Assembly (NCBI RefSeq): GCF_000255295.1
Contig: NC_017030.1
Location: 6,358,328 to 6,422,327, forward strand
Direction of reading: 5' to 3'
Source: Corallococcus coralloides DSM 2259
GTDB lineage: Bacteria > Myxococcota > Myxococcia > Myxococcales > Myxococcaceae
Length of the DNA: 64,000 bases
Made by a program: the position numbers and the translations under genes. The notes beneath the pieces were generated by a model that had not been told where the DNA came from, did no database searches, and saw nothing but the letters and a program-made list of their open reading frames with translations. This document shows, piece after piece, positions 30,919 through 41,838 of the stretch; position 1 is the stretch's first letter, and the number at the start of each line of letters is the position of its first letter.

Positions 30919-31548
30919 GTGAGCGAGACGGCGGTGGATACGGCGGCGGCGGCGGAGAAGAAGGTAACGCTTCGTGAGGAACTGACGGCGCGCCGCAAGG
31001 CGATGACCAATGACCTCATCGACGAGCGGGGCCTCAAGGTCCAGTCTCGATTCCTGGCATCGCCCTATTACGACAAGGCGCGGACGGTGGCGCTCTACGC
31101 CCCCATCCGGGGCGAAGTGCCCACCCGGGACATCCTCATCGCGGCGTTGCAGGACGAGAAGATCGTCTGCTACCCGCTGTCCCACGTGCACGGGCGCATC
31201 CTGGCCTTCCGGGCCATCAAGTCGGAGAGCGAGTTGGAGCCGGGACGCCTGGGCGTCCGTGAGCCCACGAACTCCTCGGACCTGATTCCGGTGGATCAGA
31301 TCGACCTGTTCGTGGTGCCCGGCCTGGGCTTCAGCCCGGACGGCAAGCGGCTGGGGCGCGGCGGTGGCTACTACGACGCCACCCTCAAGGCGGCCAGTGC
31401 GCGCAGCCGCCGGGTGGGCCTGGCCTTCAACGATCAGATCGTCCAGGCGCTGCCCACGACGAGCGACGACGTGGACATGGACCAGATCGTCACGGAGAGC
31501 CAGACGCTGCGCGGCCTCTACCGCAGCTTCGACTTTCTCGACACCTGA
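30919..31548 (+). CDS. ygfA: 5-formyltetrahydrofolate cyclo-ligase (MTHFS)
   Basis: Family layout. Conserved GxGxSxDGxRxGxGxGYYD (VPGLGFSPDGKRLGRGGGYYD). GTG start. Confidence 0.85.
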   Translation: MSETAVDTAAAAEKKVTLREELTARRKAMTNDLIDERGLKVQSRFLASPYYDKARTVALYAPIRGEVPTRDILIAALQDEKIVCYPLSHVHGRILAFRAIKSESELEPGRLGVREPTNSSDLIPVDQIDLFVVPGLGFSPDGKRLGRGGGYYDATLKAASARSRRVGLAFNDQIVQALPTTSDDVDMDQIVTESQTLRGLYRSFDFLDT

Positions 31549-31641
31549 GCTGTAGGACAGGCGGGGTGACAGCCACGGGTGGGGCGGACATGGAAGTCCC
31601 GCCCTGCCCGTCGTCTTTTTTGGGCTAGTGTCCGCGGCGCC

Positions 31642-32904
31642 ATGAACCCGGACGCACTGCGCAAGGCGACCCCCGAAGAACAGTTCGAAGAAGTCACTCG
31701 CGGCACCGTGGATTTGCACGTGCCGGAGGACCTGAAGAAGAAGCTCCAGCGCTCGTATGACAAGGGCAAGCCGCTCATCATCAAGGCGGGCTTCGACCCC
31801 AGCCGTCCCGACCTGCACCTGGGCCACACGCTGCTGCTCACGCGCATGCGGCGCTTCCAGGAGTTCGGCCACACGGTGGTGTTCCTCATCGGTGACTTCA
31901 CCGCGCTCATCGGGGACCCGTCCGGCAAGAACGCGGCCCGGCCTCCCCTCACCCGCGAGCAGGTGAAGGTCAACTCGGAGACGTACAAGCAGCAGGTCTT
32001 CAAGGTCCTGGACCCGGACAAGACGGTGGTGAAGTTCAACTCGGAGTGGCTCGACGCGCTGGGCACCGAGGGGATGATCCGCCTGGCCGCGCGCTACTCC
32101 GTGCAGCGCATGCTGGAGCGCGACGACTTCAAGAAGCGCTACCGGGAGAACACCTCCATCGCCATCCACGAGTTCCTCTACCCGCTGCTGCAAGGCTACG
32201 ACTCCGTGGCGCTGAAGGCGGACGTGGAGCTGGGCGCGACGGATCAGCTCTTCAACCTGCTCGTCGGCCGTCAGCTGATGAAGGAGGAGGGCATGGAGCC
32301 GCAGGTCATCATGACCGGCCCCATCCTGGAGGGCCTGGACGCGAAGCTGGTGGACGGCGTCATCACCGGCAACAAGATGTCCAAGAGCCTGGACAACTAC
32401 GTGGGCATCGACGAGCCGGCGGACAACATCTTCGGCAAGTTGATGAGCATCACGGACGACCTGATGTGGCGGTACTACAAGCTCCTCTCCGCCATGCCGC
32501 TCAAGCAGGTGCTGGAGCTGGAGGAGAAGACGAAGTCCGGCGAGGCGCACCCCAAGGCCGCGAAGGTGGCCTTCGCGCAGGAGATGGCCGCGCGCTTCCA
32601 GGGTGAGGAGGCCGGCCGCAAGGCGGCGGAGGACTTCGAGAAGCGCTTCGCCAAGAAGGAGCTGTCCACGGAGGACCTGCCGCTCGTGGAGATTTCGCTC
32701 GCGGGCGCGGAGAAGCTGCTCGTCACGAAGCTGCTGCCGGAGACGAAGTTCGTCGCCTCCGCCACCGAGGCTCGCAAGATGATGGGCCAGGGCGGCGTGA
32801 AGGTGAACGGTGAGAAGGTCACCGACCCCAAGGCGGAGCTGGGGGCCGGCGAGTACACCGTGCAGGTGGGCAAGCTGAAGGTCACGCGGGTGAAGTTGTC
32901 CTGA
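31642..32904 (+). CDS. tyrS: Tyrosine--tRNA ligase (class I, with C-terminal S4 domain)
   Basis: HIGH motif (PDLHLGHT), KMSKS, C-terminal S4-like region ([10 protein letters not shown]). Start trimmed to MNPDALRK. Confidence 0.85.
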
Positions 32905-32935: not shown

Positions 32936-33760
32936 TCAAGGCGCGGGCGGCTCCTTCGGCAGCGCGCCTTCGTACAGCGCGGCCGAGCGCCCCATCATGA
33001 AGCCGTGGGGCAACAGCTTCATCAGCGTCGCGAGGAAGCGGTTGAGGACGCCGGGCACGGAGAGCTCGCGGCGGTGCACGAACGCCTCCACGGCGATGCG
33101 CGCGCAGGCCTCCGCGGACATGATGCCCACGTCGCCCGCCTTGAACTTCCGGTCCAGGCCGGACACCGACAGCATCTCCGTGGCGATGCCGCCGGGAGCG
33201 AAGACGGTGACGGACACGCCCGCCTTGCGCAGCTCGTAGGCCAGGCCGCGTCCGTAGCTGATGACGAACGACTTCGTGGCCGCGTAGGCCGTCTGGTACG
33301 GCAGCGGCGCGAAGCCCGCCGTGCTGGCGACGAGCATCAGCGCCCCGCCCCCGCCCTGCTTCGCGAAGTGCGCTCCAAAGAGCTGGGACATGCGCACCAC
33401 GCTGGTGATGTTCGTGGCGAGCATCGCGTCGAAGGACTCGGGCTGCTGCTCCAGCGCGTGGCCGAAGTAGGTGACGCCCGCGTTGAGGATGACGCCGTCG
33501 ACGGTGCGGCCGGACGTGGCGGTCTCGAAGACGCGCGCGGCGTCACCGGGCTTCGTGAGGTCCGCGGACAGGGGCAGCACCTGCACGCCGTGCGCGGACT
33601 CCAGCTCCGCCTTGAGCGCGGTGAGCCGGTCCTCGCGGCGGGCGACGGCGATGATGTGGGCGCCGTGCTCCTTCGCGAGCAGGCGGGCCATCTCCAGCCC
33701 CAGGCCGGACGACGCGCCGGTAATGAGCACCCAGCGGCCTCGGAAATTCATCGGTTTCAT
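32936..33760 (-). CDS. SDR-family short-chain dehydrogenase/reductase
   Basis: TGASSGLG cofactor motif, NAG, YxxxK (YAATK). Start at MKPMNF (cat at 33758-33760). Confidence 0.85.
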   Translation of the reverse strand: MKPMNFRGRWVLITGASSGLGLEMARLLAKEHGAHIIAVARREDRLTALKAELESAHGVQVLPLSADLTKPGDAARVFETATSGRTVDGVILNAGVTYFGHALEQQPESFDAMLATNITSVVRMSQLFGAHFAKQGGGGALMLVASTAGFAPLPYQTAYAATKSFVISYGRGLAYELRKAGVSVTVFAPGGIATEMLSVSGLDRKFKAGDVGIMSAEACARIAVEAFVHRRELSVPGVLNRFLATLMKLLPHGFMMGRSAALYEGALPKEPPAP

Positions 33761-33845
33761 ATCGGGCGCGTTTATTTCGCGGTGCGGCGCCGGGCGCAAC
33801 CGGGGAACAGCGGGCCTCGGGCACCCCTGTTAGAGTCCGGCCACC

Positions 33846-34949
33846 ATGCGCCTCTCCGGGTCGCTCGCCTGCTTCTTCCTGGCCCTCTCCACTGCCCCTG
33901 CCGCCTTCGCGGGGAGCGGCGTCTTCGTCACCGACGATGCCGTGGACGCGGTGGACCAGCCCGAGTCCTCCAAGGTCGTCTTCTCCGTGCAGCCGGGCGT
34001 GTCCTATCCGCTCATGAAGAAGGGTGGCCCCGACCGCGCGTGGTGCAAGCTCCAGGGCCCCAAGGCCGAGGGCTGGGTGCTCTGCGATGGCACGCCCACG
34101 GATGCCGTCCAGAAAGCACCGGGCACGGACGCGCTCGTGCGCGCGGACCATGAGAACACGCGCCAGCAGCAGGTGGCCCGGGTCGACAAGGCCGCTGACG
34201 ATGAAGAAGAGACCGTGGCGGTGCGCGCCCCCGCGAGCCGCGCGGCGGCTCCCGGCGACACGGCGGCCTGCGCGAGCACGTGTGATCAACCGCCCCTCTT
34301 CGCCAAGGCCCCGGCGCTGTCCGCGATGGACCGGGAGGTGCTGGACCTGTGCCCCGCGCGCCCCGACGCGAGCGTGAGCGCCGGGGACGTGCAGCGCTTC
34401 TTCACCAAGCACTACGACGACGCGCGGGTGCAGCGCGCGCTGTCGGCGGCGGGCCGTCCTGGCTCGCGGCAGGCGAACATCGAATGGCTCACGAGCCTGT
34501 GGGTGAGCACCGGCCCGCGCAACGCGTTCACGCACGTCTTCTGCGGGGACGACTGGCAGCGCGGCCCGATTGGCGGCCTCCACTTCCTGCCCCGCTACGC
34601 GCAGCTCGAGGCGGAAGGAAAGGTCTGCTACCAGGGCCCGGCCAGAGGCGAAGAAGCCGTGCGCGGCGAGCAGTACCTCATCCGCTTCAAGGGGCTGTCC
34701 CCCTGGTCCTGCGGCGTGAAGCGCACGGGCGGCTTCTCGACGTCACAGGACGCGGTCTCCATCGCCGCCATCGGAACCCGGGCGTTCGCGCGCTGCTGTG
34801 CGCGCGGCGGGGCGAAGAAGGAAGGCGGCGTGTACTCGGCGCCGGACGTGGGCGGCGGCAACTGGCGCATCTGGTGCGGCACGCGCAACGGCACCTACGG
34901 CATCGCCACGCTGCACCCCACCGACGAAGCCGCCACCTGCGCGGAGTAG
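33846..34949 (+). CDS. Secreted protein with a C-terminal EndoU/XendoU-like endoribonuclease domain
   Basis: Signal peptide MRLSGSLACFFLALSTAPAAFA. C-terminal NAFTHVFCGDD...GPIGGLHFLPRY matches the XendoU catalytic blocks (xFEHVFxGE and GGFHxW) with both His positions conserved and downstream Lys. Confidence 0.6.
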   Translation: MRLSGSLACFFLALSTAPAAFAGSGVFVTDDAVDAVDQPESSKVVFSVQPGVSYPLMKKGGPDRAWCKLQGPKAEGWVLCDGTPTDAVQKAPGTDALVRADHENTRQQQVARVDKAADDEEETVAVRAPASRAAAPGDTAACASTCDQPPLFAKAPALSAMDREVLDLCPARPDASVSAGDVQRFFTKHYDDARVQRALSAAGRPGSRQANIEWLTSLWVSTGPRNAFTHVFCGDDWQRGPIGGLHFLPRYAQLEAEGKVCYQGPARGEEAVRGEQYLIRFKGLSPWSCGVKRTGGFSTSQDAVSIAAIGTRAFARCCARGGAKKEGGVYSAPDVGGGNWRIWCGTRNGTYGIATLHPTDEAATCAE

Positions 34950-34978
34950 CGGACCGGCGCCAACGAAGGACGCCGGTC
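34950..34978. terminator. Bidirectional hairpin between the convergent EndoU-like and A2M genes
   Basis: GGACCGGCG-ccaacgaagga-CGCCGGTCC, a 9-bp perfect stem directly after the tag stop of the + gene and 18 bp from the stop of the - gene. Confidence 0.5.
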
Positions 34979-34995
34979 CCCTGCCCTGCTGAGGC

Positions 34996-37900
34996 CTACT
35001 GGGCCTTGTCCACGGTGAGCATCGTGCCCGTGGAGTACGCGGTGAACTCCGGCGCGTACATGGACTGCACCGTCGCCGGTCCCACGCGGAAGGTGCCCGC
35101 CATGTTCGCGCGCAGCCGGTACTTGAAGTTGTACTCACCGGCCGGCAGCGCTTCGAAGAAGAAGTTCGTCCCCGAGTCGCGCGTCTCCTCGTACCAGACG
35201 ATGCCCAGGTCCCACTTGTGGCGGGACTGCGCGTTCTCCGGCTCCAGGCCCGCGGCACGCGGATCCCTCAGGTGCACGTACTCCGCCGCGTGCTTCGTGC
35301 GCAGCGACAGCTGCACCTCCACCTCGTCGCCGGGCCGCAGTCGCGCGCCGTCGGACAGCGGGCGCAGCAGCGTCTGGTTGCCTTCGCGGATGCGCACGAA
35401 GTAGCGGCGCGACACCTGGAAGAAGTCACCGCGCTCCTCCTTGGGCAGCTGCTCCGTGGAGAAGTGCCACGTGGCGGACGCGATGGCGAAGCCCGGCGTC
35501 GTCTTCTCCACCACCGTGGTCGCCGTGGTGGCGTTCACCTCCGGACCGGGGACGACCACCTGGTTCTTCTTCCCCGTGTACACGTCCGGCGAGAAGCTCA
35601 TGGTCACCGCCTTGGAGCCCACCGTCACCTTCAGCTCCTCGCGCGCGGACAGCGAACCCTCCGCCTCCATGTAGTTCACCAGCGCGTAGAGGGCCTCCGC
35701 CGTGGCGCGCGTGGACTTCCAGTGGTTCACCTTCTTGTCCAGGAGCAGCCACTGCACCAGGCCCGCGCGGCGAGGGTCCTTCGGGCGCAGCTCCGACAGC
35801 GTGCGCAGCGCGAAGGCGTGCGTCTCCGTGGAGTCGTTGTACCAGAGCCAGCCGCGGTCCTCCGGCGCCCAGTACGTGCCCAGGTCCTGCGTCGTCTTCG
35901 CGGAGTCCATCACGCTGTCCCAGACCTTCTGCGCGTCCTTCGTGCGCTTCGACCGGTTCAACGTGAGCGCCAGGTACCCCTTGAGGTACGGCGAGTGCTC
36001 CTTCCAGTGCTTGAAGGAGAAGTCGAGCATGCGCTGCCGCTCGGCCGCCGTGAGCGCCTCGCCCGTGTAGCGCGCGTCCGGATACGCCGACGCCACGAAG
36101 TTGAGGAACGTGAGGAACTCCCAGCCCAGGTCCTTCTTCATCAGCCGGTTCGCGTAGTCGTCCCGGAAGTGCTTCGCCAGATAGCCCCACGCGGGCTCCG
36201 TCATGTTGGGTGACACCTCCACCCCGTGCTCCATGGCGCGCGACAGGCCGTGCAGGATGTAGAGCGTCATGTACGGCGACGACGGACCGCCCGGCCACCA
36301 GGGGAAGCCACCGTCCGCGTTCTGCGCCTTGCGCAGCTTCGCCTGCGAGGACACGCGCTGGGCCTGGGCCACCTTCGGGTCCAGCACGCGCAGGAGCGCC
36401 TCATCGTTTCCGGTCCCGCCCTTCGCCTCGTTGAGCCAGGGCGTCTCCTCCAGCGTCATCTTCCGGTTCGGGTCCACGTCGTCGAAGGTCTCGAAGCGCG
36501 TGCTGCGCTCGCTCAGGTCCTTGGCCACCTTCGCCACCGCCGGATACTTGGTGAAGAGGCTGGAGACGATGCCCGTGGACACGAAGCGGTTGAGCGTCTG
36601 CTCCGTGCACTCGTAGGGGTAGTCCACCAGGTACGGCAGCGCCTGAAGCACGGAGTAGAAGAGCTGCGCGTCCACCGTCACGACGAGCTGCTCGTTCACC
36701 CGCGTGGGGTCGTCCGACTTCTTCAGGTCCTCGAACGTCAGCGTCCGGCGGTCCTGGTTGTTCAGCATGGCGAAGCGCGACTGCGACAGGTGCATGCGGC
36801 CGGGCAGCACCGGCAGGGGCCGCAGCTCGCCGTCGCTGAACGCACCCGTCTTCGCGACCACTCGGAAGGCCACCGGCCCCACCCGCGCGGGCGTGGTGAT
36901 GGGGAAGCGCAGGTTCGTGCCCTTCCCCGCCGCCACCGTGAAGGCCTGCGAGGTCGTCTTCACGCCGAACTCCGCGAGCAGGCTCTTCTGCGTGTCCGGA
37001 TCCACGATGTCGAACGTGAGCTGGCCCTGCTGCGTCTGGGTCCCCGCGTTGTTCACCACGACCTCCAGCTCCGCGCGGTCGCCCTCGCGCAGGAAGCGCG
37101 GCAGGTACGGGCGCACCATCAGCTCCTTCACGCTGCGGGTGGCGCGCTGCGTGGAGCCCCCGCGCAAATCCCGCGTGAGCGCGTGCACCCAGACGTCCCA
37201 TGCCGTCACCGAGTCCGGCACCGTGAACTCCAGCACCGCCGCTCCGTCCGGCCCGGTGAGCAGCTGCGGAATCCAGAACGCCGTCTCCGCGAAGTTGGAG
37301 CGCAGCGGCCCCTCTGGCCCCTCCCCCGGTTCCGGAGCGCCGGGAGCGCCCTTGATGATCTGGATGATCTCCCGCCGCTTCTGCTCCAGCACCCGGCCGG
37401 GCTTCGGCGCGGACTCCGCGGCGGACGGCGCGGGCGACGGCGGCGGTGGCGGAGGCGGTGAAGCGTCCGATTCCCGCTGGACGGCCCCGGGCTTCGCGGC
37501 CATGGCGCGCATGCGGCGTCCGCCGTAGTAGCTGCGGTAGCCCGGACCGCCCAGCCCGTAGCCCTCGCCGAACTTCAGGGTGTCGTCGTTGAGATACGGC
37601 GCGGAGGGTCCTTCCCGGATGAGCTCGTCGAAGAGCCAGTCCGCGCCGGAGACGCCACCGGACGCCCGGAAGTCCATGTACACCGTCTGCTGCGGATACA
37701 GCTGCGCCACCTGCGGCGGCGTGTGCGGTCCGAAGACGTTGAGCGACTGATCGTACATGTACGCGAGCAGCTCCGCGGCCCCCGCCTCCAGCTTCGCGCC
37801 CTTCGGCCCCTTCACCGTCACGCGGAAGGTCTCCTTCGCGCCGGGCCGCAGCGTGTCGCGGAACGTGGCGAACTCCAGGCTGAGCTCCTTGTCATCGAAG

Positions 37901-40900
37901 GGCACGGCCACCGTCTGCTGGAAGCTCAGCGTCTGCCAGTCGCGCACCATCGAGAGCACCACCGTGAAGCCGCCGCGCAGGGCCTCCGTCACCGGAAGCT
38001 CCACCACCGCGCGCCCCTGCCCCGCCGTCAGCTGGCGGTGCTCGACGCGCTGGCGCCCCTGGTACACGTCCATCACCAGCGGCTGGCCCTCAAAGCCGGA
38101 GGCCACCATCAGCCGAGCCACCTCGCCCACGCGCACGGAAGCGCGCTCCGCCGCCAGCACCGCGGGCAACCCCGCCGGGGCGTGGGCCCCCGCCACCACG
38201 AAGTCCCGTTGCGCGGTGGCCTTCTGGCCGAACGCATCCGTCGTCTCGTAGCGCAGCCGGTACGTCCCCGCGCGCAGCGCCGGAAGCTTCACGGTGGCGA
38301 CACCGTCCGCGTCATGCGTCACCGCCGCCTGCGCCACCTCCGCGCCGTCGTCCCAGCGTCGCAGCGTCTGCTCCACGTCGTAGGCCGTGTCCCAGCGCCC
38401 CTTCTGCGCGTCGCCCGGCGTGGGCGAAGCCTCCTTGGCCGGCTGCGCGTCCGCGTCCAGGGGCTTCGGATTCTCCACCGGGACCTCCGACGGCATCAGC
38501 GGACGCCCCGGCGCCTTCAAGGCGATGAGCCGCCAGCGGCCCGGTCCGGCCTGCGGCGCGCCATCCAGGTTCGAGCGCACGAGCCGCACCTCCGACGGGA
38601 AGTCCTCGCGGACGAAGCCCACGTCGGAGTCCACGCGGCCCTCCACCGACACGAAGCCCAGGCGGAAGGCCCGGCTCGCGGAGCGCGTCTCGCCGCCCTC
38701 GTCCGTCAGGTCCGCCTCCACGCGGTAGCGCCACGACATGCCCTGCGCCTTCGCGAGCCGCTCGTCCGCTTCCGGGGTGAACGCCACCGTGAAGCCGCCG
38801 TCCTCGCCCACCGTCGCCGTCCCGGAGGCCACCAGCTCCGTGGTGGCCGGGATGCGCTCCCAGAACCACCAGCGCGGCAGCACCGGCTCGCGCGACACGC
38901 GCCACTTCACCGCGCCGCGCGTCACCGGCAGGCCGAAGTAGTAGCGGGCCTCGCCCTTGAACGTCGCGCGCCGGTTGAGCCGCAGCGCTTCCGGCGCGTC
39001 CTTCAGCGTCACCTCGAAGGTGGGCCGCTTGTACTCCTCCACGCGCACGGCCGCGTAGCCGTTGGGGCTCGTGCGCACCGTCCACTGGCCCAGGGGCCGC
39101 CCCGAAGGAATGTCGAACTCGCCCGCCACCGAGCCGAACGTGTTGGTGCGGGCCTCGCGCTTGGACACCTCCTGGCCGTTGGGGTCGATGAGCGACACCG
39201 TCACCGCCGAATTTGGCAGGACGCGGTAGCGCTTGGACACCTCCTCCGGACGGTAGGCCACCACCTTCCACAGCAGCTTCTGCTGGGGCCGGTAGACGGC
39301 GCGGTCCGTGTAGATGAGCGTCTGGTCCTGCGGGCCCCACTCGTGAGGGGTGGACAGGTACAGCGAGCCCGGGAGCACCATCACGCCCTTGCCCCGGCCA
39401 AACACCAGCTCCAGGTCCTCGTAGCGGTTGGCGTCCGTGCCCGTGAGCACCAGGTCGCCGTTCGCGTCGGTGCGGCGGCTGACGATGCTGTAGCGGCGGG
39501 TGCTGTAGTCCGACTTCACCAACCGCACCTCCACGTTCGGAGCCCCCGCCCCCGTGGCGCCGTCCACCACGTGGACCTCCGCCTGGTTGGGGTTCGCCTT
39601 GCGCACCGTCACCGCCCACGGCGACACGGACATCCGCAGGGAGAGGATCCGGCTGTTCTTCTTCGCGAAGTCCTCACGCGTGGACATCGCGATGATGTAC
39701 GCGCCCGCCTTGAGCGCCGGCGGGGTCACGAACGTCTGGTGCCGCTGGAAGTCCGGCGTGGGAGGCAGCGCCGCGCTCCACGTGGCCTCCGGCTTGCGCG
39801 ACGCCACCATGCGGAGCATCTCCTCGGTGGAGGGGAACAGCGACAGGTCCTCGCTGGGCTTCGCGAGCCGGGCCTCCACATCCACCGGGTACGCCCGGAA
39901 GTACACCGTGGCCACGTTGCGGTGGCCCACCAGGATGGAGCGCTTGCCCGGCCCGTCCACCTGCATCCCGGTTGCGTAGAGCTCCGGCGCCTCCAGCCTC
40001 GCCACCAGCACCGCGCACTGCACGCCACCCACCGACTTCGGCCACGCCTCCGCGCCCGCCTTCGCCAGGGAATGCGCGGTGATGGCGCGGCCCGCCGTCT
40101 CCTCCATCTCCGCGAGCTGGTGCTGGCCCTTGGACCACCACGGCACGTCCCGGAAGCCCTTCAGGTGCGCGGCCAGGTGCTCCCGGATCCGCCGCAGGTC
40201 CGCGGCGTCCTTGAACGACGTCGACAGCACCTCGTAGCGCCGCAGCCGCGCCTCCAGCGCCGCCTCACGCCGGCCCGCCGCCTGGTGCCAGGCCTCCAGG
40301 TCCCCCAACACCGCCGCCACCTTCATCAGCGGGTGCGCGGAAGGGTCCTTCAGCTCCACCTTCGGCGTGCCCTCCAGGAGCGCGCCCAGGTCCAGCCGGT
40401 ACACGCCCTGCTCCTGCTCCGGGCGCCACAGGTCCGTGTCGTCCAGCGAGTCCACCCACAGGTACGTCACCGCGTCGCGTACCGTGGAGCGGATGCCCTC
40501 CGGATACGTGTTCGGCTGGATGTACTCGGACAGCCCCTTCACGGGCTCGGTGCCGAACTTCTGCCGCGACTCCCAGACGGCGGCGTACGTGCGCTGGATC
40601 TCCGCCGAAATCTGATCCTTCGTCCACGCCTTCAGGTCCACCGGCCCGGAGGACACCACCTGCTCGCGCTGGCCAATCTCGTAGCTGTACGCCTGCTGGT
40701 AGCTCGCGAGCACCGCCGCGTAGAACAGGTGGAGCGTGGCCTGCTGCCGCAGCCCCTCCGGCCAGGGCTGCTCGCGCAGGAAGCGCACCGTCGTCTCATA
40801 GCCGTGCAGCCGCGTGCGCAGCTGCACCGTGCGCACCAGCGCGCGCGTCCACTCGTCCGCGTCACCCTGGGCCTTCGCCGCGGCGAGCCGGGCCTCGGCC

Positions 40901-41064
40901 CCCTGCGCGGCGGACTCGACCTTGTCGTCCTCGACGAGCGCGTCGATGGCCTTCCACGTCGGAGGGGCCTTCGCTGCGGGGGCCGCCACGGACACGGAGG
41001 ACAGCGCTAGGGACAGCAGACACAGGACGACGGCGGCGGTACGCGGGCGCGGTGGAGAAGACAT
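34996..41064 (-). CDS. Bacterial alpha-2-macroglobulin family protein (2022 aa)
   Basis: Signal peptide. Thioester-region motif DYPYECTEQTLNRF (CxEQ). Overall A2M/MG-domain layout and size. Antisense ORF 37723..41010 rejected. Confidence 0.85.
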   Translation of the reverse strand: MSSPPRPRTAAVVLCLLSLALSSVSVAAPAAKAPPTWKAIDALVEDDKVESAAQGAEARLAAAKAQGDADEWTRALVRTVQLRTRLHGYETTVRFLREQPWPEGLRQQATLHLFYAAVLASYQQAYSYEIGQREQVVSSGPVDLKAWTKDQISAEIQRTYAAVWESRQKFGTEPVKGLSEYIQPNTYPEGIRSTVRDAVTYLWVDSLDDTDLWRPEQEQGVYRLDLGALLEGTPKVELKDPSAHPLMKVAAVLGDLEAWHQAAGRREAALEARLRRYEVLSTSFKDAADLRRIREHLAAHLKGFRDVPWWSKGQHQLAEMEETAGRAITAHSLAKAGAEAWPKSVGGVQCAVLVARLEAPELYATGMQVDGPGKRSILVGHRNVATVYFRAYPVDVEARLAKPSEDLSLFPSTEEMLRMVASRKPEATWSAALPPTPDFQRHQTFVTPPALKAGAYIIAMSTREDFAKKNSRILSLRMSVSPWAVTVRKANPNQAEVHVVDGATGAGAPNVEVRLVKSDYSTRRYSIVSRRTDANGDLVLTGTDANRYEDLELVFGRGKGVMVLPGSLYLSTPHEWGPQDQTLIYTDRAVYRPQQKLLWKVVAYRPEEVSKRYRVLPNSAVTVSLIDPNGQEVSKREARTNTFGSVAGEFDIPSGRPLGQWTVRTSPNGYAAVRVEEYKRPTFEVTLKDAPEALRLNRRATFKGEARYYFGLPVTRGAVKWRVSREPVLPRWWFWERIPATTELVASGTATVGEDGGFTVAFTPEADERLAKAQGMSWRYRVEADLTDEGGETRSASRAFRLGFVSVEGRVDSDVGFVREDFPSEVRLVRSNLDGAPQAGPGRWRLIALKAPGRPLMPSEVPVENPKPLDADAQPAKEASPTPGDAQKGRWDTAYDVEQTLRRWDDGAEVAQAAVTHDADGVATVKLPALRAGTYRLRYETTDAFGQKATAQRDFVVAGAHAPAGLPAVLAAERASVRVGEVARLMVASGFEGQPLVMDVYQGRQRVEHRQLTAGQGRAVVELPVTEALRGGFTVVLSMVRDWQTLSFQQTVAVPFDDKELSLEFATFRDTLRPGAKETFRVTVKGPKGAKLEAGAAELLAYMYDQSLNVFGPHTPPQVAQLYPQQTVYMDFRASGGVSGADWLFDELIREGPSAPYLNDDTLKFGEGYGLGGPGYRSYYGGRRMRAMAAKPGAVQRESDASPPPPPPPSPAPSAAESAPKPGRVLEQKRREIIQIIKGAPGAPEPGEGPEGPLRSNFAETAFWIPQLLTGPDGAAVLEFTVPDSVTAWDVWVHALTRDLRGGSTQRATRSVKELMVRPYLPRFLREGDRAELEVVVNNAGTQTQQGQLTFDIVDPDTQKSLLAEFGVKTTSQAFTVAAGKGTNLRFPITTPARVGPVAFRVVAKTGAFSDGELRPLPVLPGRMHLSQSRFAMLNNQDRRTLTFEDLKKSDDPTRVNEQLVVTVDAQLFYSVLQALPYLVDYPYECTEQTLNRFVSTGIVSSLFTKYPAVAKVAKDLSERSTRFETFDDVDPNRKMTLEETPWLNEAKGGTGNDEALLRVLDPKVAQAQRVSSQAKLRKAQNADGGFPWWPGGPSSPYMTLYILHGLSRAMEHGVEVSPNMTEPAWGYLAKHFRDDYANRLMKKDLGWEFLTFLNFVASAYPDARYTGEALTAAERQRMLDFSFKHWKEHSPYLKGYLALTLNRSKRTKDAQKVWDSVMDSAKTTQDLGTYWAPEDRGWLWYNDSTETHAFALRTLSELRPKDPRRAGLVQWLLLDKKVNHWKSTRATAEALYALVNYMEAEGSLSAREELKVTVGSKAVTMSFSPDVYTGKKNQVVVPGPEVNATTATTVVEKTTPGFAIASATWHFSTEQLPKEERGDFFQVSRRYFVRIREGNQTLLRPLSDGARLRPGDEVEVQLSLRTKHAAEYVHLRDPRAAGLEPENAQSRHKWDLGIVWYEETRDSGTNFFFEALPAGEYNFKYRLRANMAGTFRVGPATVQSMYAPEFTAYSTGTMLTVDKAQ

Positions 41065-41115: not shown

Positions 41116-41736
41116 TCAGGTCGCCGCAGGCGCCGGGGCCCGGCGCCGCAGCCCCACCACGTAGACCTCCATGCTGGCGCCGCGCGTGGCCTCCGGACGG
41201 ACGATCTTCACCTCTTCGAAGTGATTGCGCACCTCGTCACGGAAGGCCTCGAAGTCGCCCCCCATGAAGACCTTGGCCACGAACGTGGCGCCGGGCCGGC
41301 CGCGCGTGGCGGCCACCTCCAGCGCCTTGCCCGCGAGCCGCAGGCTGCGCGCCTCGTCCGTGCCCTTGATGCCGGACGTCTTGGGCGCCATGTCGGAGAT
41401 GACCGCGTCGTAGGGACCGTCGTACAGCGCGGCCAGCTTCGCGTCGAAGTCGTCCGCGAGCACGTCCAGCACCGCCGTCGTCACCCACTTCTGGGAGAAG
41501 GGCCGGATGGCCGCGATGTCCACGCCGATGACGCGCCCATTCATCCCCACCGCGTCCGCCAATATCTGGAGGAACCCGCCCGGCGCCGCGCCCAGATCCA
41601 GCACCGCCGCGCCCTTCTTCACGGACCCGGGGAAGCGCTTGAGGATCTCATCGACCTTGAACGCGGAACGCGCGCGCAGTCCCTCTTGCTTGGCTTTCTG
41701 GAAATAGTGGTCTTTAGGACGGTAGGGCTTGCCCAT
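41116..41736 (-). CDS. rlmE: 23S rRNA (uridine-2'-O)-methyltransferase RlmE/FtsJ
   Basis: RSAFKVDEILKRF, SAM-binding VLDLGAAPGGF, DVISDMAP. Start at MGKPYRP. Confidence 0.85.
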   Translation of the reverse strand: MGKPYRPKDHYFQKAKQEGLRARSAFKVDEILKRFPGSVKKGAAVLDLGAAPGGFLQILADAVGMNGRVIGVDIAAIRPFSQKWVTTAVLDVLADDFDAKLAALYDGPYDAVISDMAPKTSGIKGTDEARSLRLAGKALEVAATRGRPGATFVAKVFMGGDFEAFRDEVRNHFEEVKIVRPEATRGASMEVYVVGLRRRAPAPAAT

Positions 41737-41838
41737 GTCAGAAGCCGTCCCTAGCATCCGCTACTGTCTTCGGAAAGCCGGAGCAGTCGCGGCCTGTTGG
41801 CTGGCCGCGCCCACGGACTTCGCCGGAGGGTTGGTGGC

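Follow-up and report, generated by a model that had tools for sequence, protein, structure and literature searches.

Is an EndoU domain that stands alone in a bacterial protein one more polymorphic toxin, or a secreted ribonuclease of a different kind? This question is raised by COCOR_05082, a gene located in a stretch of 64,000 nucleotides from Corallococcus coralloides DSM 2259 (contig NC_017030.1, positions 6,358,328 to 6,422,327 of the forward strand), the whole of which is referred to here as the window. Our analyses lead us towards the second answer: we consider it probable, although well short of certain, that COCOR_05082 encodes an exported, disulfide-stabilised SH3b-EndoU endoribonuclease that degrades extracellular or periplasmic RNA, and that it does not belong to a polymorphic toxin cassette.

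COCOR_05082 is a genuine and native gene. The product of the open reading frame (ORF) is a 100% sequence match to COCOR_05082 / AFE06182.1 / WP_014397875.1 of Corallococcus coralloides DSM 2259, and its GC content by codon position (0.68/0.56/0.91) follows the coding pattern of a high-GC genome. The flanking genes have a GC content at third positions (GC3) of 0.94-0.95, and regional GC is flat at ~0.70-0.73. Horizontal acquisition was considered and ruled out, since GC and GC3 agree with those of the neighbouring genes. Public databases label this exact protein as an "EndoU domain-containing protein" (NCBI) or a "Bacterial EndoU nuclease domain-containing protein" (UniRef), with a similar label in UniProt. 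A preliminary description of this DNA had given the ORF just as we find it, with the motifs FTHVFCGDD and GGLHFLPRY (residues 228-236 and 243-251) as the two catalytic His blocks of an EndoU nuclease.

That assignment is borne out, although not to the family originally proposed. COCOR_05082 matches Pfam family PF14436 (EndoU_bacteria) with 29.9 bits (E=8.2e-7, gathering threshold 25.3) over residues 225-317 and profile positions 2-91 of 129, a match that is partial and barely over the threshold. The same family is matched by all 24 aligned diverse family members (E<=1), and 12 of the 24 also show a weak match to CoV_NSP15_C. The preliminary description had instead named PF09412 (XendoU; gathering threshold 32.3 bits), to which COCOR_05082 has no match at E<=10; 7 of the 24 relatives reach it below threshold (24.8-25.9 bits), and there only with the core (profile positions 141-262). 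COCOR_05082 has no match in NCBIfam. In searches of the PDB, the single protein (phmmer) found nothing beyond a chance match to an alkaline phosphatase (E=0.89), a profile built from myxobacterial sequences only (alignment A1) found Nsp15 alone at E=2.1, and the relative P0108 reached XendoU at a mere E=0.47. A significant match to XendoU required a broader profile (A3), which combines the domain in the window with close orthologues and distant bacterial relatives, and which retrieved XendoU (2C1W, E=3.4e-8), human EndoU (9FTW, E=4.2e-6) and MERS Nsp15 (E=2.3e-3).

In the A3 alignment, FTH230VFCGD of COCOR_05082 is paired with FEH162VFVGE of XendoU, GGLH246 with MGLH178, K292 with K224 (KPVGSS) and ATLHP with GTAYP; in the A1 alignment to MERS Nsp15, both His blocks likewise fall on the catalytic His pair. 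The accepted triad of XendoU is H162/H178/K224, equivalent to H285/H300/K343 of human EndoU (Malard et al. 2025, PMC11961692). This His-His-Lys triad is retained in ~130 of 136 family members, and K292 alone in 135 of 136. Consequently, the two results on which the assignment had been staked in advance, a profile match and the alignment of the His residues to catalytic positions, both came out in its favour. The EndoU fold (a helix with the His hairpin plus two beta-sheet units) is present, and COCOR_05082 is, as judged by alignment, an EndoU-fold protein with homologous catalytic residues.

The remainder of the protein differs from how it was initially described (Table 1). A stand-alone protein with a signal peptide was correctly recognised, on the evidence of sequence, hydropathy and orthologue N-termini. 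The N-terminus consists of MR, a hydrophobic core and AFA followed by GS, and is predicted to be of the Sec / signal peptidase I type with no lipobox; orthologues retain a hydrophobic N-terminus that ends in ALA, AFA or ARA (alignment A1). A lipoprotein reading of S-L-A-C9 was rejected, given that this is not a lipobox, lies too near the N-terminus and involves a Cys that is not conserved. As a separate observation, the metagenomic relative P0141 (224 aa) has no SH3b domain and begins with the lipobox-like MKWVLALLLLASC, such that some family members may be lipoproteins and not soluble exported proteins.

What had been termed a novel Cys-rich N-terminal region is in fact a predicted SH3b-like barrel followed by a variable linker, while most of the Cys residues lie in the nuclease domain. 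In the AlphaFold2 (AF2) model, which has a predicted local distance difference test score (pLDDT) of 80 overall and ~90 within folded domains, residues 23-81 form an SH3-like small beta-barrel that resembles the cell-wall-binding domains of lytic enzymes. Both members of a Cys pair (C67/C80) are invariant in this region, as is the motif YPLxKxGGP..WCK...GWV.C. The linker contains large indels across orthologues (alignment A1) and has a mean identity of 0.27, compared to 0.73 and 0.74 for the two parts of the nuclease domain (residues 140-226 and 227-367, respectively); its pLDDT falls below 50 at residues 82-92 and 118-139, on either side of a single predicted helix (94-115). The EndoU part is also longer than the 150 aa first proposed, at ~228 aa, since it includes a helical extension as in eukaryotic EndoU, marked by invariant C142, C146 and C169 and the motif PLF...DREVL.LCPARPD. 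In addition to the triad, the catalytic core holds D235, a T355-x-H357-P358 motif and invariant C233, C261, C289, C317, C318, C344 and C365. Altogether the mature protein contains 12 Cys, 2 in the barrel and 10 in the EndoU domain, all of which are invariant in the 24 sequences of alignment A1, and exactly 12 occur in 126 of 133 full-length relatives, which points to an extracytoplasmic, disulfide-bonded protein.

Table 1 Positions, within the window, of COCOR_05082, the parts of its product and the neighbouring features
Feature	Position (strand)	Residues or length	Remarks
COCOR_05082 ORF	33846..34949 (+)	367 aa	Stop codon 34947-34949
Signal peptide (predicted)	33846..33911 (+)	Residues 1-22	MRLSGSLACFFLALSTAPAAFA; predicted cleavage between AFA and GS; from sequence and hydropathy
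SH3b-like beta-barrel (predicted)	33912..34088 (+)	Residues 23-81	
Variable linker	34089..34262 (+)	Residues 82-139	Ala/Asp/Thr/Val-rich; length differs widely among orthologues
Helical N-terminal extension of EndoU domain	34263..34523 (+)	Residues 140-226	
EndoU catalytic core	34524..34946 (+)	Residues 227-367	PF14436 covers 225-317
H230 codon	34533-34535		
H246 codon	34581-34583		
K292 codon	34719-34721		
tyrS (tyrosyl-tRNA synthetase)	31579..32904 (+)		Pfam tRNA-synt_1b, E=1e-68
Short-chain dehydrogenase (SDR) gene	32936..33799 (-)		Pfam adh_short, E=1.9e-43
Alpha-2-macroglobulin (A2M) family gene	34996..41064 (-)	2022 aa	Pfam bMG10, A2M, MG2, A2M_BRD
GC-rich hairpin	34941..34989		46-bp gap between convergent EndoU and A2M genes

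Orthologues that span the full length, with 52-95% identity, are present in Corallococcus, Myxococcus, Pyxidicoccus, Hyalangium, Archangium, Melittangium, Cystobacter, Stigmatella and Aggregicoccus. When one genome from each species was scanned, 72 loci emerged, all from Myxococcota with the exception of one probably mislabelled record, and we propose that the EndoU gene has been inherited vertically on the chromosome of Myxococcaceae and Archangiaceae. The exceptional record (BNCN01000003.1, 'Comamonas sp. KCTC 72670') contains an orthologue, with a best match 83% identical to the query domain, in a Myxococcus-type tyrS-EndoU-A2M order, and is probably mislabelled or contaminated by a Myxococcus genome.

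Could COCOR_05082 nevertheless be an interbacterial or anti-prey toxin, as the preliminary description implied? Under this explanation the EndoU domain would be delivered into target cells, by outer membrane vesicles, by type II secretion followed by uptake, or by outer-membrane exchange, and would kill by cleaving tRNA or mRNA like CdiA-CT, MafB and other EndoU toxins. The precedent is considerable, in that most characterised bacterial members of PF14436 are toxin tips (Zhang et al. 2011); moreover, COCOR_05082 is predicted to be exported, its hosts are predators, and SH3b domains often direct lytic enzymes to prey cell walls. The hallmarks of polymorphic toxins (an immunity gene, trafficking domains and a variable C-terminal domain) are, however, absent. 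No small conserved ORF or immunity gene adjoins the EndoU gene in the ~80 loci examined, in agreement with the preliminary description, which had seen none here (and there is none in 72 related loci); in the window, the downstream gap of just 46 bp holds only a hairpin. Strictly, an immunity gene would be unnecessary if a secreted toxin could fold only once outside the cytoplasm. Pfam scans also reveal no trafficking or pre-toxin domain, with only EndoU, SH3 and Nsp15 families matching, and no translocation module is evident by which the protein would cross a target envelope. A 79-aa ORF between the EndoU and A2M genes of Aggregicoccus was ruled out as an immunity candidate, being on the opposite strand and unconserved.

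The genomic setting points in the same direction. The COCOR_05082 locus has no contact-dependent inhibition (CDI), Rhs, type VI secretion system (T6SS) or Maf context, and neither COCOR_05082 nor the upstream SDR matches a PADLOC model at E<=0.01. The preliminary description had asked whether homologues lie in toxin/immunity loci of other myxobacteria; no such context was found in the loci examined, where downstream genes vary and no small ORF is conserved. The orthologues are collinear over their full length and their C-terminal domain is not strain-variable. Each genome appears to carry one conserved full-length orthologue in a syntenic block of the core chromosome, and thus polymorphism, as would be expected of a toxin, is lacking. 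COCOR_05082 also has no lipobox, unlike the SitA toxins transferred by outer-membrane exchange, which carry one. We therefore regard delivery as a toxin as unlikely.

The favoured reading of COCOR_05082 as an exported RNase would proceed in four steps. From its N-terminal sequence, the protein would be exported through Sec and cleaved after Ala22. It would then fold oxidatively outside the cytoplasm, where the conservation of the 12 Cys suggests up to six disulfides. The SH3b module may tether the enzyme to a polymer (peptidoglycan, matrix or cell-surface material), as its fold resembles that of the SH3b domains by which lytic enzymes bind cell walls. By homology, the EndoU domain would finally cut single-stranded RNA through RNase-A-like acid-base catalysis by H230, H246 and K292, producing 2',3'-cyclic phosphate and 5'-OH ends. 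Self-protection could be achieved by compartmentalisation, as active enzyme would never fold in the cytoplasm of the producer and an immunity protein would consequently be unneeded. Myxobacteria are predatory and lytic, and with the family confined to them, the most likely role would appear to be the breakdown of extracellular or periplasmic RNA, such as that released from lysed prey or kin.

Several of the same features would also suit a housekeeping or signalling RNase in the producer's own periplasm, comparable by analogy to RNase I of E. coli and anchored through SH3b on the cell's own peptidoglycan, which would process or clear RNA that reaches the envelope and make 2',3'-cyclic nucleotides. 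The signal peptide and the invariant, potentially disulfide-forming Cys are compatible with this location, an SH3b-like fold is typical of peptidoglycan binders, and core-genome synteny is accompanied by strong purifying selection across genera. EndoU chemistry does, furthermore, leave 2',3'-cyclic phosphate ends (Malard et al. 2025, PMC11961692). The limitation of the family to one predatory lineage nonetheless argues against general housekeeping, and we attach little probability to this explanation.

A number of points weigh against the reading of COCOR_05082 as an exported, RNA-degrading enzyme. Literature searches recovered no work on this EndoU family in myxobacteria, COCOR_05082 included. 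The SH3b assignment comes from predicted structure, and COCOR_05082 has no match to Pfam SH3_3 (PF08239; gathering threshold 27 bits), for which the best score, 16.9 bits (E=0.0073), is sub-threshold and only 2 of 24 members give a match. The location may be either periplasmic or extracellular, and a role in predation or scavenging is drawn solely from the lifestyle of the organism. Within the domain, Gly296, at position +4 from the catalytic Lys, replaces the uridine-reading Ser found in both human EndoU and Nsp15, and U-specificity is consequently not to be assumed for COCOR_05082. Among the Ca2+ ligands of human EndoU (E217/E284 at site 1, D179/D315 at site 3 and the bridging E290; Malard et al. 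2025, PMC11961692), E284 corresponds to an invariant Thr (Thr229) in the COCOR_05082 family. Lastly, all five Stigmatella-clade orthologues (P0082, P0083, P0085, P0086 and P0088) read FTYVFCGDD, with Tyr at the position of H230. They retain H246, K292, all 12 Cys and high overall conservation, and no consistent compensating change was seen among them. The H285A mutation abolishes the activity of human EndoU (Malard et al. 2025, PMC11961692), from which it follows that the Stigmatella-clade proteins may be impaired or chemically altered, yet still under selection. At least one lineage may therefore do without classical catalysis or have it in altered form, and the Tyr variant weakens the case for RNA cleavage as the sole conserved function.

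Taken to its extreme, this evidence would suggest that the family comprises catalytically weak or inactive EndoU-fold proteins, whose conserved function is to bind RNA or some other ligand. The Stigmatella proteins, conserved in all but their first catalytic His, fit such an explanation, as does the lack of conservation of both the uridine-reading Ser and the Ca2+ ligand E284 of human EndoU. However, the triad is complete in COCOR_05082 itself, and ~96% of family members retain the full His-His-Lys triad, D235 (the equivalent of human E290) and the T-x-Y/H-P motif, an invariance that is best accounted for by catalysis. A pure binding protein thus seems highly improbable.

The surroundings of COCOR_05082 were compared by tblastn with the window's neighbour genes over the 72 related loci. 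The preliminary description emphasised a convergent position relative to a giant A2M gene. This is correct for the window, but the adjacency is not conserved: a downstream, convergent A2M gene is present in 37 of 72 loci, but none is adjacent in Cystobacter or Stigmatella, and a functional link between EndoU and A2M was ruled out on these grounds. The conserved neighbour is instead tyrS, which across genera lies upstream, in the same orientation, in 45 of 72 loci as well as in L001-L005, and which we present as context only. Co-transcription with tyrS was ruled out as a requirement, given that the opposite-strand SDR gene intervenes in Corallococcus. This SDR gene separates tyrS from the EndoU gene in only 13 Corallococcus-type loci of the 72; it is thus a genus-specific insertion into an otherwise conserved tyrS-EndoU adjacency and does not belong to the system. 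The downstream gene is A2M in Myxococcus and Aggregicoccus, SRAP in Cystobacter and a 2OG/WD40 gene in Stigmatella, and in more distant loci, which are mostly from metagenome-assembled genomes (MAGs; e.g. L006 and L007), neither tyrS nor A2M adjoins.

A GC-rich hairpin with a minimum free energy of -34.8 kcal/mol (z = -4.9; none of 200 shuffles was as stable) occupies the gap where the EndoU and A2M genes converge, and is probably a bidirectional terminator. As it has no T-tract, a scan for consensus terminators overlooks it. A sigma-70 promoter scan found nothing, a result that is uninformative for a high-GC genome.

Further observations concern the neighbouring genes themselves. The SDR gene is listed with a TTG start that lies only 46 bp from the EndoU start; its true start is probably an internal ATG (MKPMNFRGRW...) ~39 bp further in. 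In the A2M protein, the bait-region match is followed by a Pro/Ala-rich insert of low complexity (PPPPPPPSPAPSAAESAP). In Myxococcus loci A2M is followed by an FtsJ-type methyltransferase gene, whose probable counterpart in the window is a 213-aa ORF at 41116-41757 (-). In Myxococcus and Aggregicoccus (L001/L002/L005), a YmdB-like metallophosphoesterase gene is located between a 5-formyltetrahydrofolate cyclo-ligase gene and tyrS; at window positions 30919-32904 the cyclo-ligase gene and tyrS are ~30 bp apart, and hence the YmdB-like gene appears to be missing at that position in Corallococcus.

For COCOR_05082 the EndoU annotation, fold and chemistry were already known, and the practical value of our results is accordingly modest. 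What is added is the long, XendoU-like form of the domain, the SH3b-like N-terminus, the status of the gene as a conserved myxobacterial gene linked to tyrS and not to A2M, the recognition that the family is not a polymorphic toxin, and the existence of one clade that lacks one catalytic His. Should the protein prove active, it would take bacterial EndoU beyond toxin tips, to an exported RNase that stands alone, is rich in disulfides and carries a targeting module, and as a core-genome EndoU of a predatory lineage it would broaden the picture of bacterial EndoU past polymorphic toxins. The myxobacterial lytic repertoire would likewise gain a candidate extracellular RNase. More tentatively, the secreted, SH3b-tethered protein might be a bacterial counterpart of animal EndoU/PP11 that shares its helical extension, degrades RNA during predation or in the matrix and is regulated otherwise than by the eukaryotic Ca2+ switch, with the Stigmatella His-to-Tyr change marking an altered or non-catalytic function; we offer this extended view as possible but doubtful.

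Comparison with the eukaryotic proteins (XendoU and human EndoU, or PP11; PF09412; 2C1W, 9FTW) reveals, beyond the common aligned triad, that the residue at position +5 from the first His is acidic in both (E290 in human EndoU, D235 in COCOR_05082) and that a C-terminal T-x-Y-P motif is aligned. The bridging Ca2+ ligand E290 is thus represented by an Asp that is invariant in the COCOR_05082 family, and the corresponding human mutant, E290D, has activity above wild type (Malard et al. 2025, PMC11961692). The helical extension that precedes the catalytic core has been termed eukaryote-specific (Malard et al. 2025, PMC11961692), yet according to the structural model COCOR_05082 also possesses one that packs on its core, albeit shorter (~85 aa), and sequence-profile matches alone indicate an extension in its cyanobacterial and gammaproteobacterial relatives. 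Such proteins could offer a tractable bacterial model for the role of the extension in the absence of the human Ca2+ ligand E284. Animal EndoUs are, in addition, often signal-peptide proteins with disulfide-rich somatomedin B modules at the N-terminus (Malard et al. 2025, PMC11961692), whereas the N-terminal module of COCOR_05082 is SH3b-like, and its nuclease domain, unlike that of eukaryotic EndoU, contains ten conserved Cys.

Bacterial EndoU toxin domains, such as CdiA-CT of E. coli STEC_O31 (5HKQ) and MafB, belong to the same Pfam family as COCOR_05082 (PF14436, 91 of whose 129 profile positions are matched by COCOR_05082), and the same type of His-His-Lys chemistry would be expected of both. 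Unlike these toxins, COCOR_05082 does not form the C-terminal tip of a large delivery protein; it lacks an immunity gene, shows no polymorphism, and carries in addition a helical extension, a Sec signal peptide, an SH3b module and six potential disulfides. The nidoviral NendoU (coronavirus Nsp15) differs in being a hexameric, cytoplasmic subunit of a viral replicase with other N-terminal domains and neither signal peptide nor disulfides.

Comparable proteins also occur in other bacteria. An exhaustive hidden Markov model search with the domain profile against 1.84 billion representative proteins returned only 108 matches at E<=1e-3, among which the distant ones cover profile positions 17-222 of 230, that is, both extension and core. 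When ten distant relatives were compared with Pfam, 8 exceeded the PF14436 threshold, 6 of them over almost the whole profile; those that have a name are "EndoU domain-containing proteins" of Nostoc, Leptolyngbya and a gammaproteobacterial MAG. These stand-alone cyanobacterial and gammaproteobacterial proteins have in common the extension motif P-[LF]-F-D ... FD..[VIL]L..CG/CP together with the core, and have signal-peptide-like N-termini, in some cases with extra N-terminal modules. They are 21-31% identical to the domain in the window, lack most of the myxobacterial Cys, match PF14436 much more strongly and at full length, and are also uncharacterised. Among the additional modules, the N-terminal region of P0160 appears SH3-like by eye and contains two Cys, and that of the Nostoc protein P0180, a different module, comprises ~170 aa. 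It has previously been noted that some bacterial EndoUs are nearer to eukaryotic versions and that Sec is the predicted exit route of some toxins (Zhang et al. 2011). The combination of extension and core in these distant relatives suggests that stand-alone, secreted bacterial EndoUs with the extension form a wider, uncharacterised class, in which secreted EndoUs combined with a targeting module may recur.

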